Positions 28,429 through 53,930 of a stretch of DNA of 64,000 nucleotides are shown piece after piece. The stretch lies in the NCBI GenBank assembly GCA_963827235.1, contig CAWHAE010000009.1, positions 672,001 through 736,000 on the forward strand. Direction: 5' to 3'. This stretch comes from an uncultured bacterium (GTDB taxonomy: Bacteria > Chloroflexota > UBA5177 > JANWHV01). Under the pieces are notes generated by a model. That model was not told the origin of the DNA, did not search any database, and saw nothing but the letters and a program-made list of their open reading frames with translations. The stretch's first letter is position 1; the number at the start of each line of letters is the position of its first letter. A program made the translations under genes and the position numbers.

Positions 28429-31400
28429 ATGCGCAGTATGCTTCGTTTTGGATCCGGCCCCGCCGGTCGAGCCCTGCGACGATGGATACCCATCCTCGTG
28501 ATGCTGGCAGCCATCCTACCACCAACAAGCAGCGAAGCGCATGCGAGCCGCACCGCCGGCTGCAAGCAGGGCGGCTGCCCAGCCGTACAACCAGCGACCA
28601 CACAACCGTCGACCGTATCGAGCCGCGCAGCAGGCTCAACGGCAGCTCCCAATACTACCCTCGACGTGGCCGACGGATACATCCAGGTTCAGGCTCCCAA
28701 TAACCTGCGCATCATCGGCCCATCGTACAGCACAACCATCCAGGCAGGCGACAACAGTGCAAGCCAATTCTTCAGTCCCGGATTCGGCTCCGTGATGCTC
28801 GATGCCGGCGCGCGACTCAACCTCACCGTACTCGATACCAACGGCAATAGAGGGACCTATACAGCGATCGTCACGCCCTCCACGTACGTAGCCAAGGACG
28901 GACGCGTCTACCTCAAGGGCAGCGGGTACCTAGGCAGCGGCTCCCGCGAACCGCTGGCCATCAAGTATTATCCGTCAGGATCTAGCATAGGCAATCTCCA
29001 GTATTGGGTGGCTGAAGTCACCAATCTGGATACGCAAGACGTCCATCTCACCATCGATATGACTCAGGGACCTACCAACTTCACCAATGGACGTTACCAG
29101 AACGTCGGCAACGGCAGCGGCGATAACTTCGTCATCGACGCCGCAAACAGCTACCTGAGAATCAACGACACCGGCATTGCCAACATGTACATAGGTATGA
29201 AGCCGCTGAATACACCGACGAGGCACTTTCAGGTGTCCAGCTCGTGGATGGACGACTCTAGCTACATCAGCACCAATCACAAACTGAGCGATACCGTATC
29301 CCAATCCTCCAGCGGCTATGGTGACTACGTCTATCTCCAAAGCGGGGACCTTGCTTCAGGATCAGCAAGTACAACCACCATCACTCCAGGTGCCACGGCG
29401 ACGTTCGCCTGGGCAATAGGTTACGCGACGACTCAAGCGGCGCTCACCACGCTCATGAACGGCAGTGACGCGCAGTTTGGCTCTGACTTAGGTGCCTATA
29501 GAGCACTAGCCGCCAACACAGTGATGACGGTGACCACACCGTACGCAAGCTTCAACTATCTGCTCGAGTCGATGATGAGGACAGAGCTCTATAGCTCCAA
29601 GCTCATGCAGGTGCATGGGTATCAGGCGCCGCCCGCAGGAGCATACACGTTCTTCACACCCTTCGCACGCGACGGCTACTACGCGGCACTCAGCAATGGC
29701 CAGGCAGGCAATACCAGCTCTATCAGAGACCAATTCAATCTCTTTAGGAGCATAGAGAATGCCAACCACAGCCAGCAGCATGAAGCCGGCTACTACGTCA
29801 ACTCCAATGGCATGTACTTTGCGTATGGCAACAACGGATCTCCCGGCGATCAGGATATGTATCAGATTCTGGAAGCGTATGAATACTACGTTCGTACCGG
29901 AGACAAGCCCTTCCTGACGGCAAACATATCCTACCTGGACAACATAGGAGACTACCTTGTCGGCTACTATAACACCAATATAAGCACGGATGGGCTATTC
30001 GAGTCAGCAGGGTGCGCGACATATCTAGACGGCAATGGAAATCTGACCGGTAGATCTCCCGTCGTGGATCCGATCATGAACGCACTGTTTGCCTATACCA
30101 TGAACCGGCTATCGGAATTGAATGCGATCACAGGAGATACTTCCAGGGCCAGTACGTACGCCGCTGTCGCCACCAAGATAACCCAGAACTACTCCAAGCT
30201 CTTTCTCCCCTCGACAAACTGGCTACTGTTCAACAGAACGCCTGATGGTCTCACGACCTACTCGAACGAGGCGCTGACCAAGATAGATGCATTGATATTC
30301 GACGCACTGACGGATACGACAGAACAGCAGGCAATGGTGACTAACGTACTGGGAGCTACATGGTGGGACTCGACCAATGAGGCTTTCTATGAGACGCCAA
30401 CGAACGATAGTCTGTTTAGTCCTGGCTCGTACTGGTACGGTCCCGGATGGAACTTGACCGACTACAAGGCATTCTCCGCCATATTCAGATACGGAACGAC
30501 GGCCCAGGCGCAGGCGGCGTGGTCACGCTTGCAGCTTCACACGGATCGAGTGATCGCCTCGCAGTACGGCAATCCGGGTGAGCACAGCGGAGACAATGGC
30601 CTGTTCGACTTTAGCCTATCGGCGGTAGAGATGGTAACTAGAGGCTTGTTCGGCATCGACGCGCATAGCACGTATTTGACTGCTTCGCCCAATACGTGGA
30701 AGATAGGTGCCGGATCGACCTGGTCATTGAGTAACTATACGGCCGGCGGTCATTACTATAGCTTCACGGTGAGTGGCGACGGCCCGCAGCAGACGACGTA
30801 CCTTGATGGCGTTCTCCAGTCGTCGAACAGGCTCTATTACGATGGCAGCGATCATACTGTAGCGATCGTGATGTCGGCTACTACAATCTCGCCCACGCCG
30901 ACTGCAGCGTCCGCCTCGGCGACACCGACTACTACTCTCGCCTCGTCCACCCCGACCGCGGGGTCCGCCTCGTCCACCCCGACTGTGCCGCCTGCGTCGC
31001 CCACGCCGACTTCCGTACCCGTTTCGCCCACGCCGACTGCCACGGCGGCGGGCGGGATCGTGACCTTGGGAGGGCTCAATCTGGATGGATTCTGCCGCGC
31101 TCAGGGCTTAGGTAGCAATGCCTCGCTCGTCAATGGAGTGTGGTACTGCTCGAGCACGAGGATCGACATGGTCTCGGCCTGCAAATGGCAGTATCCGTCG
31201 GCGCAGAACGTTACCGCAGCTGAAGCTCAGAACGGCAATGCCTATACTTGGACGTGCTACGGGGGCGCCGTAGCGTCTTCCCCCACGCCGACCGCGGCCA
31301 CTCCCTCCGGCACGGCAACTTCCACACCAACAGGGAGTGCACAGAGAGTGACGTCGTTCGGGCTCTATAACGCTACGACCAATCAACCGATAGCCGGATA

Positions 31401-31692
31401 CAATCCACTACTTAGCGGTTCGACGATCAGTTTGTCGGCTTTGCCGAGCACACACTTGAATATCAATGCAGTTACATCACCGGCGATGGTTGGCAGTGTG
31501 GTTTTCGGCGTGGACGGAAATGCGAATTATCATACTGAGAACTATACCCCTTACTTCTTAGCTGGTAAGAGCGGCGGATATTGGATACCGTCAATTGGGA
31601 CGCACACCATCTCAGCAACTCCCTTCACGGGCTCACAAGGGTCAGGAGCAAGAGGGCTGCCTTCAACACTTGTCATTACCTTTGCTCAGTAG
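28429..31692 (+). CDS. Large secreted modular protein: putative (alpha/alpha)6 glycoside hydrolase, S/T/P linkers, 4-Cys domain, Ig-like C-terminus
   Basis: Signal peptide ending AHA; FARDGYY, YEYYVRTGDK.FL, YWYGPGW motifs typical of six-hairpin glycosidases; GGAGGT RBS. Confidence 0.75.
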   Translation: MRSMLRFGSGPAGRALRRWIPILVMLAAILPPTSSEAHASRTAGCKQGGCPAVQPATTQPSTVSSRAAGSTAAPNTTLDVADGYIQVQAPNNLRIIGPSYSTTIQAGDNSASQFFSPGFGSVMLDAGARLNLTVLDTNGNRGTYTAIVTPSTYVAKDGRVYLKGSGYLGSGSREPLAIKYYPSGSSIGNLQYWVAEVTNLDTQDVHLTIDMTQGPTNFTNGRYQNVGNGSGDNFVIDAANSYLRINDTGIANMYIGMKPLNTPTRHFQVSSSWMDDSSYISTNHKLSDTVSQSSSGYGDYVYLQSGDLASGSASTTTITPGATATFAWAIGYATTQAALTTLMNGSDAQFGSDLGAYRALAANTVMTVTTPYASFNYLLESMMRTELYSSKLMQVHGYQAPPAGAYTFFTPFARDGYYAALSNGQAGNTSSIRDQFNLFRSIENANHSQQHEAGYYVNSNGMYFAYGNNGSPGDQDMYQILEAYEYYVRTGDKPFLTANISYLDNIGDYLVGYYNTNISTDGLFESAGCATYLDGNGNLTGRSPVVDPIMNALFAYTMNRLSELNAITGDTSRASTYAAVATKITQNYSKLFLPSTNWLLFNRTPDGLTTYSNEALTKIDALIFDALTDTTEQQAMVTNVLGATWWDSTNEAFYETPTNDSLFSPGSYWYGPGWNLTDYKAFSAIFRYGTTAQAQAAWSRLQLHTDRVIASQYGNPGEHSGDNGLFDFSLSAVEMVTRGLFGIDAHSTYLTASPNTWKIGAGSTWSLSNYTAGGHYYSFTVSGDGPQQTTYLDGVLQSSNRLYYDGSDHTVAIVMSATTISPTPTAASASATPTTTLASSTPTAGSASSTPTVPPASPTPTSVPVSPTPTATAAGGIVTLGGLNLDGFCRAQGLGSNASLVNGVWYCSSTRIDMVSACKWQYPSAQNVTAAEAQNGNAYTWTCYGGAVASSPTPTAATPSGTATSTPTGSAQRVTSFGLYNATTNQPIAGYNPLLSGSTISLSALPSTHLNINAVTSPAMVGSVVFGVDGNANYHTENYTPYFLAGKSGGYWIPSIGTHTISATPFTGSQGSGARGLPSTLVITFAQ

Positions 31693-44069: not shown

Positions 44070-45595
44070 GAAGTGAAAATGGCTCGTGCCTACACAGCGA
44101 CGTCCGCGGACTCCCGAAGCTGGAGGGATACATCGAAGCCCAAGGCCTGCAAACGGCGGACGAGTCGACGCTGGGCAGCCTGCTTGTCGCGCTGGTCAAG
44201 ATAGGTGACGCCCAGCTCCTGATACGGTTCATGGTCACGCAGGAGGTGGTAGACGATGACAAGGATGCTGCGGGCCACGGCCACCGCAGCCCGCTTCTTG
44301 CCGCGGCGTGCCAGCAGGCGATGGTAGAGTGCGCCAAGGTACGTGTTCTTGGCGTGCCCAGCGGCGTGCGCAGCGTCGACGAGCAGCGCGCGCAACCAGG
44401 GACTGCCCTTGCGTGTCTTGCCGCTCTTGCGTTTGCCCGCACTGATGTTGTTGCCAGGGGCGACGCCAGCCCATGAGGTCAGATGGTTCGCGCTGGGAAA
44501 GCGGCGCATGTCGGTCCCGATCTCGGCGATGATGGACTGGGCAGCGACGAGCCCAATGCCCGTGATGGCGTCCAACCGCTCGATGTCCTCTGCACTCAGG
44601 GCAACGCGGCTCGCAACCTCGGCACTGACGCGCTCGATGGCCCCATCCAGGTAATCGATGTGTGCCAGCTGCTCGGCCAGCACGAAGCATTGGTGTGGGC
44701 CGACCGTGCCGCTGAGGGCCTGCTGGAGTTGGGGAATCTTCTCCCGCATGCGCCCGCGTGCGAACTGCGCCATGGTGGCGGGGTCGGCCGTGCCCGCGAT
44801 CAGGGCTGCCAGCACGTCTCGCCCAGATGCGCCGGTGATGTCCGATGCCACGCTACTCAGTTTAGTGTTGCCGCCTTCGAGCACCTTCTGCACCCGATTG
44901 ACTTCGTCCGCGCGCTCCCGAACCAGGGCCGTACGGTAGCGGGTCAGCTCCCGCAGTTCCCGCAGCGGGCAGTCAGGGATGAAGCTCGCCCGCAGCAAGC
45001 CGTGCCGCAGCAGGTCCGCTAGCCAGGCGGCATCCCGGACATCGGTCTTGCGCCCTGGCACCTGCTTGATGTGAGTGGCGTTGACCACGATGACCGTCGG
45101 CACCACGCCTTCCAGCAGGTTGTATGGCGGCTTCCAATAACTCCCGGTCGACTCCATCGCCACCGCCGGGCACGCCGCCACCAGCCAGTCCACGAGCGCC
45201 AGCAAGTCGCTGGTCATGGTGCCGAAGTGCGCACCTCCTGCTGCGGCACCCCTGCAACGCCTGGGGTGAGCAGACAGGCGACCACGCTCTTCTTGTGCAC
45301 GTCCAGACCACAGCACCGCTCGTACAGGACCTCCATCGCGCTGCTCCTTCCTCCAGGCGCGTCCACCCGCTGCGAGATGGTGCGCGGGAGTGCCCCATAA
45401 CGCGGAGTCTGAAGTGCGTGCTCTCCCGAAGGAGGCAACAGCCGGTGCTACCCAAGGGCACTCCGGTCAATCCTATGCGCGGGCTCGTAGCACCAGCCTT
45501 GTTCCGACCTTCGTGCGTCCTCACCGTCTCGCCCCCACGATACCACCCAGTGGTCTCGCGCAGCACAACCACATTTTCATGGGCGGTGGTGGTCC
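44070..45595 (-). mobile_element. IS110 family insertion sequence
   Basis: DEDD recombinase plus ~250-bp upstream non-coding region; short inverted TGAAAATG (44074-44081) and CATTTTCA (45572-45579). Ends approximate. Confidence 0.85.
44090..45336 (-). pseudogene. IS110 transposase/recombinase with a 1-bp frameshift near 45229
   Basis: CGLDVHK, then frameshift, then AMESTGSYW, GRKTDVRDA, WAGVAPGNNISAGK. Confidence 0.9.
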
Positions 45596-46949: not shown

Positions 46950-47810
46950 TCATCCGGCCGGATCGCTCGACCGGAGGCCGACGTACAGCAGGTGGGCACT
47001 CGTGCCGAGCAGCGAGAGATCGCCCGCAGTCTCGATTGCCAGATCAAGCACGCGTCGGTAGCCGGCCGGGTCCACAGCTTCCATGGCAGCCAGAGCTTCG
47101 CCAAGCCCGGAGGCGAACCCGTTGGCGGCCAGGAGCGCTTGGGTGGTAAAGCCATGCGCCTCGAAGAATGGCGCGACCTGCTCGGCTCGTACACCATAGC
47201 AGCTGGTGAAGCGGCCCGGTACCGCGTTCCCGTAGATGCCCTTCTCGAGAAGCGGCCGCAAGAAAGCCGGATCTGCCAGTTGGAACCGTTCGTCCTCCAG
47301 CATGAGGGTACGGCGAAGGAAGGCGTAGACGGGCATCATGGCGACGAACACCAGCCCGCCGGGCCGGAGCACCCGCGCCATCTCCGTGCAAGCGCGATCG
47401 CGGTCCGGCTCGTCTGGCAGGTGGTAAAACGGCCCGAATGAGAGCACGGCGTCGAACGACGCATCGTTCCAGCGACTCAGGTCACGGGCATCGGTCTCGA
47501 CAATCGCCTCGACCATCCCGGCCACCGGCGAGCGACGAATCCGCTCGCGCGCGGCGGCCACAAGAACGGGGGAGAGATCGGCGAGCACCACGCGGTGCCC
47601 GCGCTCTGCCAGCCACAGCGTGTAGCGACCGGGTCCGCCGCCGATATCGAGCACACGCGAACCCGTGGGCAGGCACGTCTCCAGCGCGTGCGTGACCACC
47701 GCGAACTCTACAGGGCCGTCGTGAGCAGGGCTTGTGAGCCGGTCCCACTCTCGCTCTGCGCGAGCCGCATAGTAGTGAAGCATGGCATCCCGAGAGGCGT
47801 CAGGATCCAT
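46950..47810 (-). CDS. Class I SAM-dependent methyltransferase
   Basis: VLDIGGGPGRY, FDAVLSFGPFYHL, RVLRPGG. Confidence 0.92.
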   Translation of the reverse strand: MDPDASRDAMLHYYAARAEREWDRLTSPAHDGPVEFAVVTHALETCLPTGSRVLDIGGGPGRYTLWLAERGHRVVLADLSPVLVAAARERIRRSPVAGMVEAIVETDARDLSRWNDASFDAVLSFGPFYHLPDEPDRDRACTEMARVLRPGGLVFVAMMPVYAFLRRTLMLEDERFQLADPAFLRPLLEKGIYGNAVPGRFTSCYGVRAEQVAPFFEAHGFTTQALLAANGFASGLGEALAAMEAVDPAGYRRVLDLAIETAGDLSLLGTSAHLLYVGLRSSDPAG

Positions 47811-48199
47811 GCACAGCACCCTCCCGTCGTAGCCTCAAGTGCAGCTCCGCGCCGAGTTGCAAGGCTCGCTCGACCGTTGGCGTGCTGAGCTTGCCCATGG
47901 CAGGTGGTCCATATAGCGGCGCGGGGTTCATGGCGGCAGGATACAGGCATGGACGATCTCGCGACAAGATAGCTTCCGCCGACAGCATCGGCGGAGGTCA
48001 CCGGTGAGGATCTCGCGCGCCAGAGCGTGCATCTCCTCGGGCATCGCAAGCTCTTCGTGCTGTACCGCGCGCATCCGGGTCAGGAATAGAGCGTCTTGCG
48101 CACGCAGGAGCGGTGCTGTGGAGAACTGGAAATAGGATCGTATCGGCGCTGCCGAGCAGGAAGAGAATCCGACGGTGCTGCTGCGGCTGTCCAGCGGCT

Positions 48200-48440
48200 A
48201 CGCCTTCAGGTGCGGACACACGGTTCTTGCCGGGCTACTGCGTTCTCATGGCTGTGCCTCAGGTCAATCGCCTGACCGACCTGCCGCGTGACTGTCGGAG
48301 AGTGTTCCTGCTGGAGATGAGCCTGCTGGGCGTGGCAGTGATGACGGTGTGCACGCCCAGGCGCATCAACTACGAGATCCCGGGCACCACGGACGCCTAC
48401 CTGCACGCCCACGTGAGGGTGCGCTACGACCGGGAGCCTG
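48200..48440 (+). pseudogene. HIT-family hydrolase remnant
   Basis: FLPGYCVL...RINYEI.G..D.YLHAHV..RY. Confidence 0.6.
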
Positions 48441-48648
48441 CAGAGCAGTCGGGCCCGGCGAGAAGCCTCGCCTCGGCCGGGGACCGCTCTCGCCGGATCC
48501 GCGGCCGGGACGGCGCTCCCCTCGCGCACCACGCCCTCGGTGATAGTGCTCATGCCGTCCCGGACGCGACCGGCCGCCTTTGCCCGTCGCCGCGATGCTG
48601 GCGAGCAAAGGCGGCCAGGTGGAGTAGAAGCTGCGTCGAAGCGGCAGC

Positions 48649-49452
48649 TCAGTCGGACGTCGTCGCGGTGGGCACGCCCGTGGTCGTGGTCATCGGCTGT
48701 GCCGTTGTCGTGGTGGGCGATTGCGTCGTGGTAGTAGGCGCGGGAGTCGTGCTGGTGGTGGTGGTCGGCTGCGGCGTAGTAGTTGTGATGGGCGCCATCG
48801 TGGTGGTCGGCTGCGGCGTAGTAGTTGTGATGGGCGCCATCGTGGTGGTCGGCTGCGGCGTAGTAGTCGTGATGGGCGCCATCGTGGTGGTCGGCTGCGG
48901 CGTAGTAGTCGTGATGGGCGCCGTCGTCGTGGTTGACGCGGGAGTCGTGCTCGTGGTAGGGGCTGCCGTCGTGGTCGTGGAGGTCGTGGTCGGGCGCCTG
49001 GTAGTGGTGGTCGTTGGGCGCCTGGTGGTCGTTGGGCAGCGGTGCCGGTGGCGATCGGGATCAGGATCGGAGATCGGGTCCGCGAGCGCAGGCACCGCGG
49101 GTGCTACGATCGGCATGAGGACCAGCGACAATCCTGCCGCCGTCAGCCGCGTGATCACCTGCCGTCTCGAGAGCGTGGCCGGGCGGGAGTCGCCGTGCTG
49201 GAACAGACCGGCACTCCTCAGCTCCTCCAGCGCCAGGTCCAGCAATCCTTCAGCCTGCTGCTGAGAGACGTTGAACGTGCGCTGCAGAAGCCGGACCAGC
49301 TGCTGTGGCGTGGTCTCGCCATCACAATGCTGCCACACCAGGCTGGTCGTGGCGTTCAGGACGAAGCTCTTCCCTCGCTGCCAGTCAAAGAGGCCCAGCC
49401 CATCTCCGATGGCCTCCACTCGGACTGTGGTGATCTTCTGCGGGTTGTGCAC
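48649..49452 (-). CDS. PqqD/RRE domain fused to a twin-Arg-like leader and a mucin-like Thr/Pro-rich repeat core
   Basis: GGGAGAG RBS before GTG; LNATTSLVWQHCDG...L..ALEEL.SAGL (PqqD pattern); LSRRQVI, hydrophobic stretch, PALA; then TTTT-rich repeats. Confidence 0.85.
   Translation of the reverse strand: MHNPQKITTVRVEAIGDGLGLFDWQRGKSFVLNATTSLVWQHCDGETTPQQLVRLLQRTFNVSQQQAEGLLDLALEELRSAGLFQHGDSRPATLSRRQVITRLTAAGLSLVLMPIVAPAVPALADPISDPDPDRHRHRCPTTTRRPTTTTTRRPTTTSTTTTAAPTTSTTPASTTTTAPITTTTPQPTTTMAPITTTTPQPTTTMAPITTTTPQPTTTMAPITTTTPQPTTTTSTTPAPTTTTQSPTTTTAQPMTTTTGVPTATTSD
48758..48925. repeat. 42-bp x4 tandem repeat encoding (M/T)APITTTTPQPTTT
   Basis: Units start at 48758, 48800, 48842 and 48884 and differ at only 1-2 positions. 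Confidence 0.95.
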
Positions 49453-49529
49453 GCGTGTCTCTCCCTGGATATGCGGATGAGCGAGAACCGTGGGACAAAG
49501 CACAAAGAGTGACGGATGCGCCGGGCCGG

Positions 49530-50330
49530 TCAGTCCATAGACGCCACCTCCTGCACCGGCTGCCCGGCCGGCGTTTGCAGGCGCGCGGATACCATGCTGC
49601 AATAGTCCTTCTGCCAATGTGGTACCAGACTGATGCGTCCGAGGCGAATGTGGCCGGCCGCAGCGCTTCGTTGCACGTACGCCTCGACTTCCTGGTGGCC
49701 CACGTTCTCGCCCGGCTGGTAGTTGCCAAAGCCGCTCATATGATAGGATCCCGTGCCGCCCCAGCGATAGACGTAATAGATGTCTTGCGGTCTGATGTCG
49801 TAGGGCGCGATCGCGCCGGGAAATCGTCGCGCAAGGCGGGTCTCGAAGTCCCAGTCATACCCCGTTCCCTCGGCCGCGTACCCTCCTACGGCGTCAAACA
49901 ACGTGCGCGTCCAGCAGCTCCCGGCATGGAACAGATTGGCCTCGGGACCGCGCAGCGTACCGCTGTCCAGGACCCATCCTTTGTCGGGCTTGAAGAAGCG
50001 CTGCTGCGGTGCGAGCTTCTCCACCGTAAAGGACAGCCTGTGAGGCAGGTAGATGTCGTCGTCATCCCAGACGAAGAGCAGATCGTGCGCGGCCAGGGCG
50101 ACGGCCATGTTCATCTTTTCGCCCACGGTGCGCAGGCGCTTGGGCAGGTTCACCATCCGCACCTCGGGATGGTCGATCTCCAGGTACTGCTTATCGTAGT
50201 CGTTCAAGACGATCAGCTCTTTCGGCCCGGCGTACTCCTGCCGGAGAAAGGAGAAGATGGCCTCCTCCAGCAGCGCCGGACGGGCATACGTCAGACAAAT
50301 ACAGCTGACGGGCGGATACCGATTCAACAT
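49530..50330 (-). CDS. Glycosyltransferase family 2 protein
   Basis: PPVSCICLTYAR..LLEEAI, ELIVLND, WDDDDIYLPHRL (DxD). Confidence 0.92.
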   Translation of the reverse strand: MLNRYPPVSCICLTYARPALLEEAIFSFLRQEYAGPKELIVLNDYDKQYLEIDHPEVRMVNLPKRLRTVGEKMNMAVALAAHDLLFVWDDDDIYLPHRLSFTVEKLAPQQRFFKPDKGWVLDSGTLRGPEANLFHAGSCWTRTLFDAVGGYAAEGTGYDWDFETRLARRFPGAIAPYDIRPQDIYYVYRWGGTGSYHMSGFGNYQPGENVGHQEVEAYVQRSAAAGHIRLGRISLVPHWQKDYCSMVSARLQTPAGQPVQEVASMD

Positions 50331-50443
50331 GCGTGCGGCTCACTCACTCCGTTACGTGGATAGACGACGTGCGTTCATCTGAATCAGGGAACCGGCTCCG
50401 GAACCCTAACTCGGGACTCCTGTTCTCGGGCCCAGGGGGAGCG

Positions 50444-52888
50444 TCACAGGGGACAGCTCTCCTTGAACTGTTCGAATAGCCAATCGTCGCCCCGCGTGCG
50501 GCGTCCGGCCAGGGCCGCGCGCCGCTGCCAGACGTCGCTCTCCACGGCATGCGCCAGGGCCTGACCGAAGTCGGAGCTCTTTTGCATCTCGGAGGCGACG
50601 CGCGCGATGCGGTCCTGGCTGAAGTGCAGCAGCGCCACCCGCAGCACGTTGTGCGTGACAATGCCCGGCTTGAGCTTGAGCGGGTTGACGGTGCGGAAGT
50701 AGTGCAGCACGGTGACGTCCGGCACCACCCACACTTCGTAGCCCAACAGCCAGTAGCGGACGCAGAGCTCCATGTCTTCCGAGCCCCACTGTGCCATCCC
50801 TTCGTCGAACCCACCGGCATCGTCCAGAGTCTCACGTCGCATGGCCATGAACCCTCCTCCCAGCGCGGGCACCGGATGAGGCTCGTGCTGCTGCCAGGGC
50901 AGCCATTCCAAGCGCAGATTCAGCTCCGCGATGCGCTGGCCGCAGGCCGCCGGGTACTCTGGCTTGCCCATGACGCCGATCGCCGGGCCCACCACGCCCA
51001 CGCGCGGTAGGTTGAGCGTGGCTACGATCGGCTCCCACCATCGCGCCGGGAGGTCGATGTGCGCATCGGCGAACACGATCACCTCACCGCGCGCCTCCGC
51101 CAGGCCGCGGTTACGCGCCCCAGCCACGCCCAAAGGTTTTGGCGCCCGGATGAGCGACACGCGCGGGTGTGGCTGCTCGATCAGGAAGTCAGCGCTGCCG
51201 TCGATCGACCCGTTGTCGACCACGATGATCTCGCCGTCGGCCGGGATGGTCGCTTCGAACTGCTCGACCGTCCGCTGAAGCAGCACCGACTCGTTCAACG
51301 CCGGCAGGATGACGCTGATGCTAGCCGGGTGCGTGCGCCTGAACAGGCCCGCTGCTGCCTCGTCCGGCAGTGGCGTGGGGGCGGGAATGACGAAGAACGG
51401 TGGCGGGAACGGGATCTCTTCCTCGCGTTGCGGCGCGGGCTCAGTGCTCAGATACTCGAAGACGAGCCGGGCATAGTCGCTGTTCCAGCGTGGATTGAGC
51501 GTGATGCAGCCCTGCCGGACCTGCCCTTGAGAAGCTTGCTCCCGCACATGCGCCGCGATCTGTTCGCGCTCGCGGCCGCTTTGCCCATAGGCACTCAGAT
51601 GGTACGAGCCGGTCCCGGCCCAGCGATAGATATAGAAGATGTCCTCCGGCTTTACCCGCCGGCTCGCGGTAGCTCCCGTGCGCGCCTCCTCGCATCGCCA
51701 CTCGAATCCGGAGTCATAGCCGTTGTCGAGGTGGGGATAACCCTGTGCTTCGACGAAGAGCGCGCGCGTCCAGCAGCTTGCGCCGTGAAAGACGTTGTGC
51801 TCCGGACCGCTCAGCTTCCCGTCGTTCCAGAACCAGGCCCGGTCGGACTTGAGGAACCCTCGTTTCTCGTCGAGATGTGCCACCGAGAAGGACAACCGGT
51901 GGGGGAGATAGATGTCGTCGTCGTGCCAGACGAAGATCAGATCGTGCGATGCGAGCGCCGCCGCTGCCTTGTACTTCTCACCCACGGAGTGAAAGCGCCC
52001 GGGCACATTGATCACCTGCACGTCGGGATGGTCGAATGCCAGCGTCTGCTGGTCGTAGTCGTTGAGGACGATCAGCTCCTTCCGGCCCGGGTAATCCTGC
52101 AGCAAGAAGGAGTGGATTGCTTCTTCCAGCAGATCCACCCGCCCGTACGTGGGGCAGATGCAGCTCACGGGCGGCGGATCGGATAGCCGCGCCGCCCAGT
52201 CGCTCGGCGCAGTCTCCGCATCGCTCCGCGCTACAGGCACCTCCTGCCTCGCCGTGTCTGTATGGCCGCCGCTCAGGCGCCGGACGACCTGTTGCACAGC
52301 AGGATCCTGTACCGCCTGCTCGAATGCCCGCGCATAGGTCTCCGGCTCCGTCGCGGCGACCGGGATCACCACCGGCGTATCCTGCGCTTCGTCGTCCTGG
52401 GAATACGGCACGATGGTGCAGAACGGCTCGCCAGCGGTAAAGCGGACCGTGTGGTGGGGGCGGGTGAGCTTCCAATGGACCACGATCGTGCCGGGGAGCG
52501 CGGACGTATCGGCCATGCTCTCCAGCGGGTACAGGCCATCCTTGGGCGCGTTGATTGGACCGCGTACCCACAGCAGCTGCTTCTCCCCGGTCTGTATCTG
52601 GTAACCGGTATGGAAGCTCAGGATGCCGTCACCAAGCTGGCTGCGCACGAAGCCGGGCGTCTCATCCGTCGTCTGATCGAATCGAATCTCGACGTCGGCG
52701 GCCCGCGAGCCGCCATTCCAGGTCGCCTCAAAGGCCCGAGGGCAGCAGAGCTGCCAGCCGAGGCCGTTCACGCGCCGCCATGCCGGGTTGGCCTGCAGGT
52801 CCTCGTTACCCGTGGCCCACTCCCGCTCCTCGGAGGGCGCTTGCAGGCCGGCCGCCTGTTCGGACAACGCATAGGCTTTGATGGTCAT
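50444..52888 (-). CDS. DUF6065 + GT2 + GT-A (ppGalNAc-T-like) three-domain glycosyltransferase
   Basis: N-terminal GWQLCCP..F.ATWNGG/GP.N.PKDG/GEPFC (DUF6065 pattern); central GT2 with HDDDIY; C-terminal FADAH, WGSED, LHYFR. Confidence 0.88.
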   Translation of the reverse strand: MTIKAYALSEQAAGLQAPSEEREWATGNEDLQANPAWRRVNGLGWQLCCPRAFEATWNGGSRAADVEIRFDQTTDETPGFVRSQLGDGILSFHTGYQIQTGEKQLLWVRGPINAPKDGLYPLESMADTSALPGTIVVHWKLTRPHHTVRFTAGEPFCTIVPYSQDDEAQDTPVVIPVAATEPETYARAFEQAVQDPAVQQVVRRLSGGHTDTARQEVPVARSDAETAPSDWAARLSDPPPVSCICPTYGRVDLLEEAIHSFLLQDYPGRKELIVLNDYDQQTLAFDHPDVQVINVPGRFHSVGEKYKAAAALASHDLIFVWHDDDIYLPHRLSFSVAHLDEKRGFLKSDRAWFWNDGKLSGPEHNVFHGASCWTRALFVEAQGYPHLDNGYDSGFEWRCEEARTGATASRRVKPEDIFYIYRWAGTGSYHLSAYGQSGREREQIAAHVREQASQGQVRQGCITLNPRWNSDYARLVFEYLSTEPAPQREEEIPFPPPFFVIPAPTPLPDEAAAGLFRRTHPASISVILPALNESVLLQRTVEQFEATIPADGEIIVVDNGSIDGSADFLIEQPHPRVSLIRAPKPLGVAGARNRGLAEARGEVIVFADAHIDLPARWWEPIVATLNLPRVGVVGPAIGVMGKPEYPAACGQRIAELNLRLEWLPWQQHEPHPVPALGGGFMAMRRETLDDAGGFDEGMAQWGSEDMELCVRYWLLGYEVWVVPDVTVLHYFRTVNPLKLKPGIVTHNVLRVALLHFSQDRIARVASEMQKSSDFGQALAHAVESDVWQRRAALAGRRTRGDDWLFEQFKESCPL

Positions 52889-53065
52889 CGCCGGGCTGGC
52901 TCCCATATGCAGTTGCAGGCCGCAAGCGCACCTCCGCGAGGTGCCGGGCCGAGAACAGAGCAGGGGAAGTGAGCAACCCACCGGCCTTTGCCCTGCCGAC
53001 TGCGTTGCTCTCGGAGCATAGCATATCGTGAGCGATGTGCTCAACAGGTACGGCTGCCCGGGGGG

Positions 53066-53623
53066 TCAGCTCGTGCCGTGCTCCGCTTCCCAGGTCCTCG
53101 GCGGCCCGATGGTGGCACCCTTCGGCCCAAATCGCTCGACGTACCGGCCATGCACGGCATGCCAACCCTCGCCGGGTTTCCACGATGCCGTACCGGCGAG
53201 GTGCATCTCGAGACCATCCAGGCAGTCGTGCCAGCCGGCGGCGTCCCGAGCGGCTTTGCCTTGCTCGTCGAATGTGTCGAGCAGCGTCAGCACGCAGCCC
53301 TGCCCCTCCGGCATAACCTCCAGGCGAATGGTGTCGGTTCCCCAGCGGAACTCGATCACGGATGGCGGCTCGCAGGCAAGCACCTCGCCCTCGAAGTCGC
53401 CGTACTTGGAGATGAATCGCAGCGGCGCGCCGGCGACCCACGAGCCGACGACGTGTTGCGGAAACCAGGCGTCGAGATGCTTGGATTCGGTGAGAGCGCG
53501 CCAAACCTTCTCCGTAGGGTAGGTCAAGCGGCGGGTAAATCGCAGTCGCCAACGCGCTCCGGCCGGCTCGAGCACGCCGTCCCTGTCGTCGCTTCCCCCG
53601 GCCTCCGGCTCGCGATCATTCAT
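53066..53623 (-). CDS. SRPBCC/Aha1-like domain protein
   Basis: LRFTRRL...EKVWRALT...L.AWFP, AAGWH.CLD.L. Confidence 0.88.
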   Translation of the reverse strand: MNDREPEAGGSDDRDGVLEPAGARWRLRFTRRLTYPTEKVWRALTESKHLDAWFPQHVVGSWVAGAPLRFISKYGDFEGEVLACEPPSVIEFRWGTDTIRLEVMPEGQGCVLTLLDTFDEQGKAARDAAGWHDCLDGLEMHLAGTASWKPGEGWHAVHGRYVERFGPKGATIGPPRTWEAEHGTS

Positions 53624-53930
53624 CGTCGTCCATCTCCTTCAGGTGACGCTCGAGGTCGTCGAGGCCGAGGCCCCAGAGGACTCGGTATGGTGCCAGCCAG
53701 TCGTCGATCTCGCGAAGCGCTGCCGGGCGCAGGCGATAAAGGCGCCGTTGAGCATCGACTCGCGCCTCGACCAGCCCGGCTTCGCGCAGCACGCGGAGGT
53801 GCTTGGAAACGGCCGGCTGGCTCACGGTCAGTCCCTCGACCAGATCACCGACCGGCCGCTCTCCAGCCCGGAGCAGATCCAGGATCCGCCGCCGATTGGG
53901 CTCTGCCAGTACCGCGAACGCCGTGTTCAT
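53616..53930 (-). CDS. ArsR/SmtB family regulator
   Basis: FAVLAEPNRRRIL, SQPAVSKHLRVLREAGLV; overlaps the downstream SRPBCC start. Confidence 0.92.
   Translation of the reverse strand: MNTAFAVLAEPNRRRILDLLRAGERPVGDLVEGLTVSQPAVSKHLRVLREAGLVEARVDAQRRLYRLRPAALREIDDWLAPYRVLWGLGLDDLERHLKEMDDDE

Follow-up and report, generated by a model that had tools for sequence, protein, structure and literature searches.

The window analysed here is a stretch of 64,000 nucleotides from a member of the Chloroflexota (UBA5177; JANWHV01; assembly GCA_963827235.1, contig CAWHAE010000009.1, positions 672,001–736,000), in which three co-oriented minus-strand genes occupy positions 48649–52888, separated by intergenic gaps of 113 and 77 bp. 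Gene 1 encodes a fusion of a DUF6065 domain with two glycosyltransferase (GT) domains, gene 2 a stand-alone family 2 glycosyltransferase (GT2), and gene 3 a pre-protein in which a PqqD-type recognition element (RRE) of the kind used by ribosomally synthesized peptides with post-translational modifications (RiPPs) is followed by a signal-like segment and a Thr/Pro-rich tail. An earlier note, made from the letters of the sequence, had described three such closely spaced genes and proposed a RiPP-like, mucin-type O-glycosylation system; the arrangement holds at these coordinates, and the DUF6065–GT2–GT fusion, the stand-alone GT2 and the PqqD domain are each recovered by Pfam profile searches. 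Its observation is thus confirmed, and its interpretation is supported by comparative genomics. We consider it moderately probable that the cassette is a self-contained protein O-glycosylation system, whose modification, export and cleavage steps we infer; the domain identities, the conservation of the motifs and the neighbourhood link between Thr/Pro tails and GT/DUF6065 genes are direct observations.

By sequence, the C-terminal GT-A domain of the 814-residue enzyme shows a clear relationship to those enzymes by which animals initiate mucin glycosylation. A phmmer search of the PDB placed polypeptide N-acetylgalactosaminyltransferase 1 (GalNAc-T1) at the top (E 2.9e-20), followed by T2, T4, T7, T9, T10 and T12 (to 6e-14), and 16 of the 18 matches at E ≤ 1e-10 are GalNAc-Ts; the "mucin-type" label of the earlier note gains its footing from these solved relatives and from the Branch and sulfotransferase domains in related loci (see below). 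The alignment sets FADAH of the bacterial domain on FLDAH, so that the metal-binding DxH is retained, and QWGSEDMEL...LHYFR on IWGGENLEI...GHVFR, with the second Gly of the WGGEN segment replaced by Ser in WGSED; the two segments correspond to the DxH metal-binding motif and the Gal/GalNAc-T motif of those enzymes. In a review, DxH is described as important for GALNT1 (PMC4202792). Strict membership of GT27 is nevertheless denied by the domain content, as Pfam finds no ricin-type lectin domain in the 814-residue protein, which ends ~60 residues past the catalytic domain, and a hydropathy scan finds neither a type II membrane anchor nor an N-terminal signal. No 19-residue Kyte–Doolittle window of this enzyme exceeds 1.48, and no transmembrane (TM) segment or signal is predicted; the stand-alone GT2 is likewise devoid of both, and with no hydrophobic window at TM level and no signal the two GT proteins are predicted to be cytoplasmic. 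The best NCBIfam match of the C-terminal GT is to MftF (TIGR03965), at 100.8 bits (E 8e-29) relative to a cut-off of 280.

Within the longer 866-residue open reading frame (ORF) of gene 1, Pfam detects DUF6065 (E 8.4e-38, ORF residues 56–237), Glycos_transf_2 in two stretches (E 7.1e-34) and Glyco_transf_7C (E 6.6e-9). The assigned start, MTIKAY, agrees with homologues, and homologues of the enzyme at 57–67% identity occur in Chloroflexia and Herpetosiphonaceae assemblies. The stand-alone GT2 (Glycos_transf_2, 36 bits, cut-off 23.3) is 53% identical over 257 residues to residues 235–487 of gene 1 (E 1e-88), meaning that the large enzyme contains a copy of the small GT2 between DUF6065 and the C-terminal GT. 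The only structures recovered with a profile built from 21 copies of this GT2 paralogue are generic GT-A/GT2 ones, led by heparosan synthase B (E 3.5e-6) and followed by PglI and SpsA; all three GT domains give weak NCBIfam matches to polysaccharide GT families (EpsD, WcaA, PgaC), those of the middle domain being of WcaA/HpnB type (ORF residues 287–430). We record, as a lead only, that the language-model clusters closest to the small GT2 consist for the most part of proteins from phages or giant viruses.

We assign to DUF6065 a predicted dUTPase-like fold, the first structural assignment for this family. An AlphaFold2 (AF2) model (mean predicted local distance difference test, pLDDT, 79.6) returned only dUTPases as its top Foldseek matches (E 8e-5, template-modelling score normalised to the target up to 0.72), and a wide VIA-align search, independent of Foldseek, placed dUTPases or dUTPase-derived viral proteins at ranks 1–14 (Z 11.2–8.4), with further chains of the dUTPase superfamily, including dCTP deaminases, at lower ranks down to Z 6.2. 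At the level of sequence, Pfam finds no dUTPase match in the 814-residue enzyme, and hhalign gives no significant match between DUF6065 and the dUTPase that this genome encodes (probability 0.2%). A 2-oxoglutarate/cupin oxygenase of prolyl-hydroxylase type was considered and rejected, as the invariant columns hold no pattern of His/Asp ligands and cupins reach only Z 3.5–3.6. As with the small GT2, the nearest language-model clusters are mostly of phage or giant-virus origin, with one weaker row of DCD/dUTPase families; this too is a lead only.

DUF6065 matches once in this genome. In related loci it is fused to several of the sulfotransferase, Branch and GT domains found there, and stand-alone relatives have either Sulfotransfer_2 or an additional domain of ~190 residues as fusion partner; one locus (L004) shows a natural split of the window fusion, with DUF6065 as a separate 190-residue ORF (8001–8573) followed by a GT2/GalNAc-T-like ORF (8616–10454). 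Fused to different tailoring enzymes in some loci and separate in another, DUF6065 behaves as a shared module, and we read it as a putative adaptor or oligomerisation module of tailoring enzymes; dUTPases themselves are trimers. A predicted complex of DUF6065 (residues 1–200) with the PqqD-plus-signal region of gene 3 (residues 1–125) scored 0.01 relative to a mark of 0.32, a result that is uninformative either way.

The pre-protein begins with a domain that matches the PqqD profile PF05402 at 41 bits (cut-off 23.4), as do all 83 sequences of an alignment comprising the window protein and 82 relatives. Its AF2 model (pLDDT 82.8) contains three strands and three helices, and its closest structural matches are lasso-peptide RREs that were solved together with leader peptides: TbiB1 (Z 10.8, root-mean-square deviation (rmsd) 2.0 Å over 88/88 residues) and 6jx3 (Z 10.2), the two lying within 2.0–2.2 Å rmsd over whole chains, followed by PqqD and the RREs of cyanobactin heterocyclases. 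The same model forms a β-strand from residues 116–119, directly after the invariant P114 of the signal segment (pLDDT ~83), all other strands belonging to the RRE; this hints that the RRE might hold a portion of the signal in its own chain, much as leader peptides are bound by RREs. The domain is the only PqqD match in the genome. By more specific profiles it stays below the cut-off, both for the lasso PqqD model and for TIGR04353 (HPr-rel-A PqqD; 25.2 bits, cut-off 35, with 82/83 relatives matching at E ≤ 1). Cys43, in the motif QHCDG (window 49324–49326), is invariant in 83/83 relatives; to our knowledge, no other PqqD/RRE family has an invariant Cys of this kind.

The segment after the RRE had been called an "SRR leader ending PALA" in the earlier note. 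The letters are there (S95-R96-R97 ... P121-A122-L123-A124, within LSRRQVI...PALA), although the label of leader gives way to that of a signal of the twin-arginine translocation (Tat) type, which is what its sequence features indicate: an S/T-R-R-x-x-L motif, a moderately hydrophobic stretch and an A-x-A-like end. R96, R97, G107 and P114 are invariant in 83/83 sequences, and residues 94–124 are the sole strongly hydrophobic stretch of the protein (Kyte–Doolittle value 1.96). Across the relatives, TIGR01409 (TAT_signal_seq) matches 36/83 at E ≤ 1 (best 3e-4) and Pfam TAT_signal 11/83 at E ≤ 0.1. An alignment of 134 representative segments, in which only the non-RR columns are informative because the set was selected on RR and the conservation of RR there is circular, shows Pro at RR+17 in 99%, then V-(V/I)-x-S-I-x-A-P, and an A-x-A-like pattern of small residues after the hydrophobic part. 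The hydrophobic part of the signal is far more conserved than export alone would require. The genome encodes TatC (E 4.4e-54, contig C8), and with the invariant twin-arginine motif this supports the export proposed by the earlier note for the predicted product.

The last 143 residues of the pre-protein comprise 69 Thr (48%), 25 Pro (17%), 10 Ala and 7 Ser, bearing out the Thr/Pro-dominated core of the earlier note in composition, if not in its length of ~135 residues. Pro stands at −3, −1, +1 or +3 of 39 of the 69 Thr, and four near-perfect 42-bp repeats (97% matches, no decay seen) encode tandem units of 14 residues; in being Thr/Pro-rich and built of such units, the tail resembles a GalNAc-T acceptor. 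An Asp/His-rich stretch, DPISDPDPDRHRHRC (residues 125–139, 49036–49080), follows the predicted cleavage site and may bind metal; it is much longer in some relatives (P0010, P0017, P0055), where weak ZrgA-type matches are seen. Many members carry a Cys immediately before the Thr-rich tail. In the close relatives P0007 and P0008 the C-terminal 35 residues form a hydrophobic stretch that runs into RRRR and resembles a sorting or anchor signal at the C-terminus, which suggests surface attachment of the putative mucin-like tail in those organisms.

Features of the three-gene cassette, with positions in the window
Feature	Positions	Strand	Description
Gene 1	50444–52888	−	814-residue soluble fusion of DUF6065, a divergent GT2 and a GalNAc-T-like GT
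DUF6065 domain (residues 1–185)	52334–52888	−	Pfam PF19541; dUTPase-like β fold in the model
Middle GT2-like domain (residues 235–487)	51428–52186	−	Paralogue of the stand-alone GT2
C-terminal GT-A domain (residues 507–755)	50624–51370	−	Polypeptide-GalNAc-transferase-like
Gene 2, stand-alone GT2 (266 residues)	49530–50330	−	DDDD motif; no signal or TM segment
Gene 3, pre-protein (267 residues)	48649–49452 (stop codon included)	−	RRE domain, Tat-type signal (predicted), Thr/Pro tail
PqqD/RRE domain (residues 1–88)	49189–49452	−	Pfam PF05402; modelled fold
Twin-arginine signal-like segment (residues 94–124), LSRRQVITRLTAAGLSLVLMPIVAPAVPALA	49081–49173	−	RR invariant in relatives
Predicted mature region (143 residues)	48652–49080	−	Starts Asp/His-rich, with one Cys ahead of the Thr/Pro-rich repeats
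42-bp tandem repeat, 4.2 copies, MAPITTTTPQPTTT units	48758–48933	−	Tandem Repeats Finder score 324, 97% matches

Comparison across genomes links these genes to one another. A search from the GT returned nine loci in species-representative genomes (Chloroflexia, Herpetosiphonaceae, Thermoanaerobaculia, Verrucomicrobia and Anaerolineae assemblies), and in six of them a PqqD-family gene immediately adjoins the GT genes; the remaining three, without a PqqD match, are two short contigs and one contig of 9.9 kb. Four of the loci (L002–L005) share the order of the window, namely DUF6065–GT2–GT, then the GT2 orthologue directly upstream of the PqqD gene, and in two others (L006, L007) the PqqD gene lies just upstream of a shorter DUF6065/GalNAc-T-like fusion. 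Recurrence of the same gene order in unrelated assemblies makes the arrangement more than chance. A metagenome scan with the PqqD-plus-signal module returned 79 loci, in which we counted DUF6065/GT homologues within 1.5 kb, grouping the cargo by sequence rules of our own. Such homologues accompany a Thr/Pro tail in 29 of 33 loci (18/18 of those with at least 1 kb on both sides, 19/20 with at least 2 kb on one side), a cargo of 'NPFYG...IQFEFTNI' type in none of 32 (0/6 and 0/9), other cargo in three of six (1/1 and 1/1) and an incomplete gene in one of eight (no locus with the former flanks, 1/2 with the latter), figures to be taken as counts and not as statistics because many of the loci are related, some nearly duplicate one another and most lie on short contigs. 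Eight metagenome loci have flanks of at least 5 kb on either side, and every one of them contains DUF6065 and a GalNAc-T-like GT. The neighbourhood link is specifically between Thr/Pro tails and GT/DUF6065 genes. The earlier note had asked whether such GTs might never co-localise with Thr-rich RRE proteins, and the opposite is found, from both directions of search (6/9 GT loci, 29/33 Thr/Pro loci).

A minimal cassette, consisting only of the PqqD protein and a DUF6065/GalNAc-T-like fusion, occurs in L006, L007 and 11 metagenome loci; that it keeps the GalNAc-T-like GT alone points to this domain as the initiating enzyme. Elsewhere the tailoring repertoire is larger, with Stf0, Sulfotransfer_1, Branch (core-2/I-branching), Gly_transf_sug, GT25 and GT4 domains as neighbours or fusion partners. 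Several Chloroflexia and Herpetosiphonaceae loci encode giant multi-domain proteins (L002:5343–10466, L003:5180–7597, L005:8853–12194, L005:4451–6817) that combine sulfotransferase (Stf0, Sulfotransfer_1), DUF6065, Branch, Gly_transf_sug and GT2 domains in one chain. Locus L010, in which the small GT2 is present four times together with a sulfotransferase-like ORF, also has a 538-residue ORF (L010:5223–6839) with a classical N-terminal SRRSFLK Tat motif and no PqqD domain.

The RRE-plus-signal module itself is far more widespread than its Thr/Pro branch. An exhaustive search of clusters at 50% identity with the N-terminal 130 residues returned 2027, 157 and 10 representatives at E thresholds of 1e-3, 1e-10 and 1e-30, respectively; of the 138 that were newly returned, 120 reach a length of 135 residues or more, and in 117 of these RR and, after it, a hydrophobic stretch stand near position 95. 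The cargo behind it is varied (Cys-rich, of ~60 residues; Gly-rich; 'NPFYG...IQFEFTNI'; other small domains), and a window with a Thr+Pro fraction of at least 0.7 is present in only eight representatives (at least 0.6 in 20). Such variety behind a common RRE and RR signal makes the Thr/Pro-plus-GT system one branch of a larger class. Two distant members in another genome of this phylum (L013 and L014 of G126) have Gly-rich cargo and no DUF6065, and were not counted as the same system; in the former (L013:7893–11060) the PqqD–RR protein adjoins an NTP_transf_5 gene and a P-loop ORF with a GKTTL motif, which we read as HprK-like although it has no Pfam match. This neighbourhood recalls the HPr-rel-A system and phosphorylated lasso peptides.

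The limits of the cassette are set by its surroundings. Five flanking genes (a methyltransferase at 46950–47819, an AHSA1-like gene, ArsR, a tyrosine phosphatase and a plus-strand ORF at 48113–48640 that has no Pfam match) were searched for in the related loci, and none has a homologue in any of them, which limits the cassette to the three genes described. These hold no flippase, polymerase or priming transferase, and no radical-SAM enzyme, protease or ABC exporter. The guanine-plus-cytosine (GC) content of the cassette is that of its surroundings, and all three reading frames are intact with their conserved motifs kept. Gene 3 initiates at GTG, with GGGAGAG a few bases upstream and an N-terminus (MxNPQ) that fits the family consensus MxNPxR. 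A scan of 47800–53700 found no promoter-like and two terminator-like sites, which is not above shuffled sequence. Further away in the window, a stretch of lower GC (0.58, relative to ~0.65) at 28429–31692 on the plus strand encodes a 1087-residue protein with weak matches to six-hairpin glycosidases (MGH1-like, rhamnosidase-like).

Taken together, these features lead us to favour, on balance, a pathway in which the tail would be O-glycosylated in the cytoplasm, exported by Tat and cut from its signal to yield a mucin-like glycopeptide. The 267-residue pre-protein would be made in the cytoplasm, where the GalNAc-T-like C-terminal domain would add the first sugar to Thr residues of the tail from a nucleotide sugar and the two paralogous GT2 domains, one fused and one stand-alone, would extend the glycan. 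The PqqD/RRE domain of the substrate may serve as a built-in recognition handle for the enzymes, or may bind the adjacent signal segment (LxPxV) until modification is done. DUF6065 would act as a common adaptor or oligomerisation module, used elsewhere in fusions with GTs, sulfotransferases and the further ~190-residue domain. The twin-arginine signal would then send the modified, hydrophilic tail through Tat, a pathway that can carry already folded cargo, and signal peptidase would cut after P-A-L-A, leaving the RRE and signal behind and releasing or displaying the 143-residue glycopeptide.

Several observations weigh against this pathway. The window protein scores 14.5 bits with TIGR01409, below the cut-off of 16.7; its RR motif lies ~95 residues in, behind a folded domain of 88 residues, which is atypical for Tat signals; and its c-region has no basic residue of the kind that many relatives possess. 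No case is known to us in which Tat carries an unfolded chain of 143 residues with heavy glycosylation. On the enzymatic side, the lectin domain and membrane anchor of GalNAc-Ts are missing, and the cassette holds no genes for nucleotide-sugar synthesis. The C-terminal GT also resembles MftF, and MftF-type GTs act in a cofactor pathway (PMC3023750), with no mucin-like protein as their substrate; the acceptor is therefore not fixed by homology. The neighbourhood counts carry the kinship noted above and cargo classes of our own definition. Lastly, the distribution is patchy: 3 out of 401 genomes sampled in the phylum hold the module, none of the genus's four other genomes (83–92% complete) yielded the cassette, and an IS110-family transposase (DEDD_Tnp_IS110 and Transposase_20; 44090–45316, minus strand) lies 3.3 kb away, a combination that fits horizontal spread.

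Some of these points are shared by an account in which the twin-arginine segment stays uncut as a signal-anchor, giving a membrane protein whose PqqD domain is cytoplasmic and whose Thr/Pro stalk, lying outside, is either unglycosylated by these GTs or glycosylated outside by other enzymes, the GTs serving the same surface structure in another way. That the RR segment is the sole strongly hydrophobic stretch, placed ~95 residues in, would suit an anchor, as would the score of the window copy under the Tat hidden Markov model cut-off and the hydrophobic-plus-RRRR ends of P0007 and P0008. We nonetheless hold it to be improbable, since S/T-R-R is invariant in the relatives, small residues in an A-x-A-like pattern follow the hydrophobic part in the 134 segments, and the strict link of Thr/Pro tails to GT genes is difficult to account for unless the tail is an acceptor; the GTs, being soluble and in need of nucleotide sugars, can reach the tail only before export. 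We likewise give little credence to a non-protein acceptor, in which the GTs would act on a polysaccharide, lipid-linked sugar or small molecule and the PqqD protein would be a scaffold, a regulator or an unrelated neighbour. The weak matches of all three GT domains to EpsD, WcaA and PgaC, the heparosan synthase, PglI and SpsA structures found by the GT2-paralogue profile and the cofactor pathway of MftF-type GTs would all be at home in such an account, yet the cassette is without the flippase, polymerase and priming transferase, the genes on its flanks show no conservation, the C-terminal GT has peptide-glycosylating enzymes as its best solved relatives, and GT/DUF6065 genes keep company with Thr/Pro-tailed PqqD proteins (29/33) and not with the other common cargo (0/32).

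PqqD-fold RREs normally bind the leaders of separate peptides, and the closest folds here are lasso B1 proteins solved with such leaders, so that a classical RiPP pathway, with a separate short precursor that escaped recognition and a Thr/Pro tail that is a mere spacer, deserves mention. It is very unlikely, however, given that the cassette has no conserved small ORF next to it (only non-conserved ones are found in the 830-bp gap downstream), that the RRE is followed in the same chain by an RR signal and cargo (117 of 120 representatives of at least 135 residues), and that the genome has a single PqqD match. There is, finally, a faint chance that the cassette is a recently acquired and possibly silent passenger with no current function in this genome, as its absence from the four other genus genomes, its presence in 3/401 sampled genomes and the nearby IS110 element might suggest; against this stand the three intact frames with conserved motifs, a GC content like that of the surroundings and the undecayed 42-bp repeats.

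Beyond the cytoplasmic glycosylation and Tat export that we favour for the window, a broader reading is possible rather than probable: the cassette might be one branch of a large, undescribed class of pre-proteins, in which an RRE-plus-twin-arginine "leader" serves as a device for modification in the cytoplasm followed by export. In such a class the RRE would hold its own conserved signal segment or recruit tailoring enzymes, with the consequence that Tat export would wait for modification of the cargo, the domain acting as a proofreading chaperone within the chain. On this view the Golgi mucin pathway would have a true prokaryotic counterpart in the Thr/Pro branch, with a GalNAc-T-like initiator, core-2-type branching and sulfation arrayed on dUTPase-fold DUF6065 modules in the cytoplasm.

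We found no description of such a system in the full text of PubMed Central open-access articles and bioRxiv (subscription journals and supplements lying outside this scope). The same sources gave no paper on DUF6065 and none on HPr-rel-A, among the matches listed nothing relevant that joins RRE or PqqD with twin-arginine signals, RiPP precursors or glycosyltransferases, nothing on natural systems for twin-arginine with RiPP leader peptides, only a general review for cytoplasmic glycosylation with the Tat pathway, nothing on bacterial GT27 homologues of this kind, and, for PqqD with Chloroflex, glycosyltransferase and precursor, only a mycofactocin paper and unrelated work. Should the proposal be true, some soil and water bacteria would make mucin-like glycoproteins with homologues of the animal mucin-initiating enzymes, in the cytoplasm and by way of Tat. 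The cassette would offer a small, testable system for the origin and range of GT27-type enzymes, and its soluble peptide O-glycosyltransferases could serve for making defined mucin-type glycopeptides. It would also represent a new use of the RRE, fused to the substrate beside an export signal, and it provides DUF6065 with a predicted fold (dUTPase-like) and a context, as a module common to GTs and sulfotransferases.

Among systems already known, the cassette is, by its profile scores and gene content, none of mycofactocin, lasso or HPr-rel-A (all below cut-off), nor is it an accessory Sec system. HPr-rel-A is a PqqD-family chaperone (TIGR04353) associated with an HprK-related kinase; the distant PqqD-plus-RR-signal members that adjoin an NTP_transf_5 gene and the P-loop ORF read as HprK-like are reminiscent of it, whereas the window cassette has no kinase or nucleotidyltransferase and its tailoring enzymes are GTs. 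With the RRE-dependent RiPPs (the lasso B1 proteins TbiB1 and 6jx3, mycofactocin MftB/MftF and the glycocins) it shares the RRE fold (Z 10.8) and an MftF-related GT, and by analogy a scheme in which recognition would occur on the leader side and modification in the C-terminal part. It departs from them in that the RRE is borne by the substrate chain and not by an enzyme or separate chaperone, and in a "core" of 143 residues whose leader would be removed by signal peptidase after Tat export; the "RiPP-like" of the earlier note holds only loosely, since the substrate itself bears the RRE and a 143-residue polypeptide would be the product. No radical-SAM enzyme or short precursor of mycofactocin type is present among the ORFs of 44–58 kb.

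The Tat proofreading chaperones TorD, DmsD and NapD bind twin-arginine signals until the cargo is mature, and a peptide-binding domain beside a twin-arginine signal, with a modelled signal strand alongside the RRE, could allow a similar hold-back role here; the fold is that of an RRE and not TorD-like, and the domain is fused in cis. Serine-rich-repeat glycoproteins of Gram-positive cocci are densely O-glycosylated in the cytoplasm by GtfA/GtfB and exported by the accessory SecA2/SecY2. The parallel, by analogy, would be a repeat-rich protein that is modified in the cytoplasm before it leaves by an export route fit for modified cargo, and the difference is that the cassette has no GT4 pair, a Tat-type signal by sequence, and an RRE on its substrate. 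The ORFs seen agree with the earlier note that SecA2/Y2 are absent from the cassette, and genome-wide one SecA_DEAD match lies above the cut-off and one is weak.

A further likeness would be to mucin-type O-glycosylation in animals and protists (GT27, core-2 GT14 and Golgi sulfotransferases). The cassette enzymes have neither a ricin-type lectin domain nor a membrane anchor, and, being predicted as cytoplasmic and not lumenal, they would modify their substrate before export, unlike those of the animal pathway. The two nonetheless share a homologous catalytic domain, with DxH kept and WGSED aligned on WGGEN, and a Thr/Pro-rich tandem-repeat sequence as known or putative acceptor, to which related bacterial loci add Branch and sulfotransferase domains.

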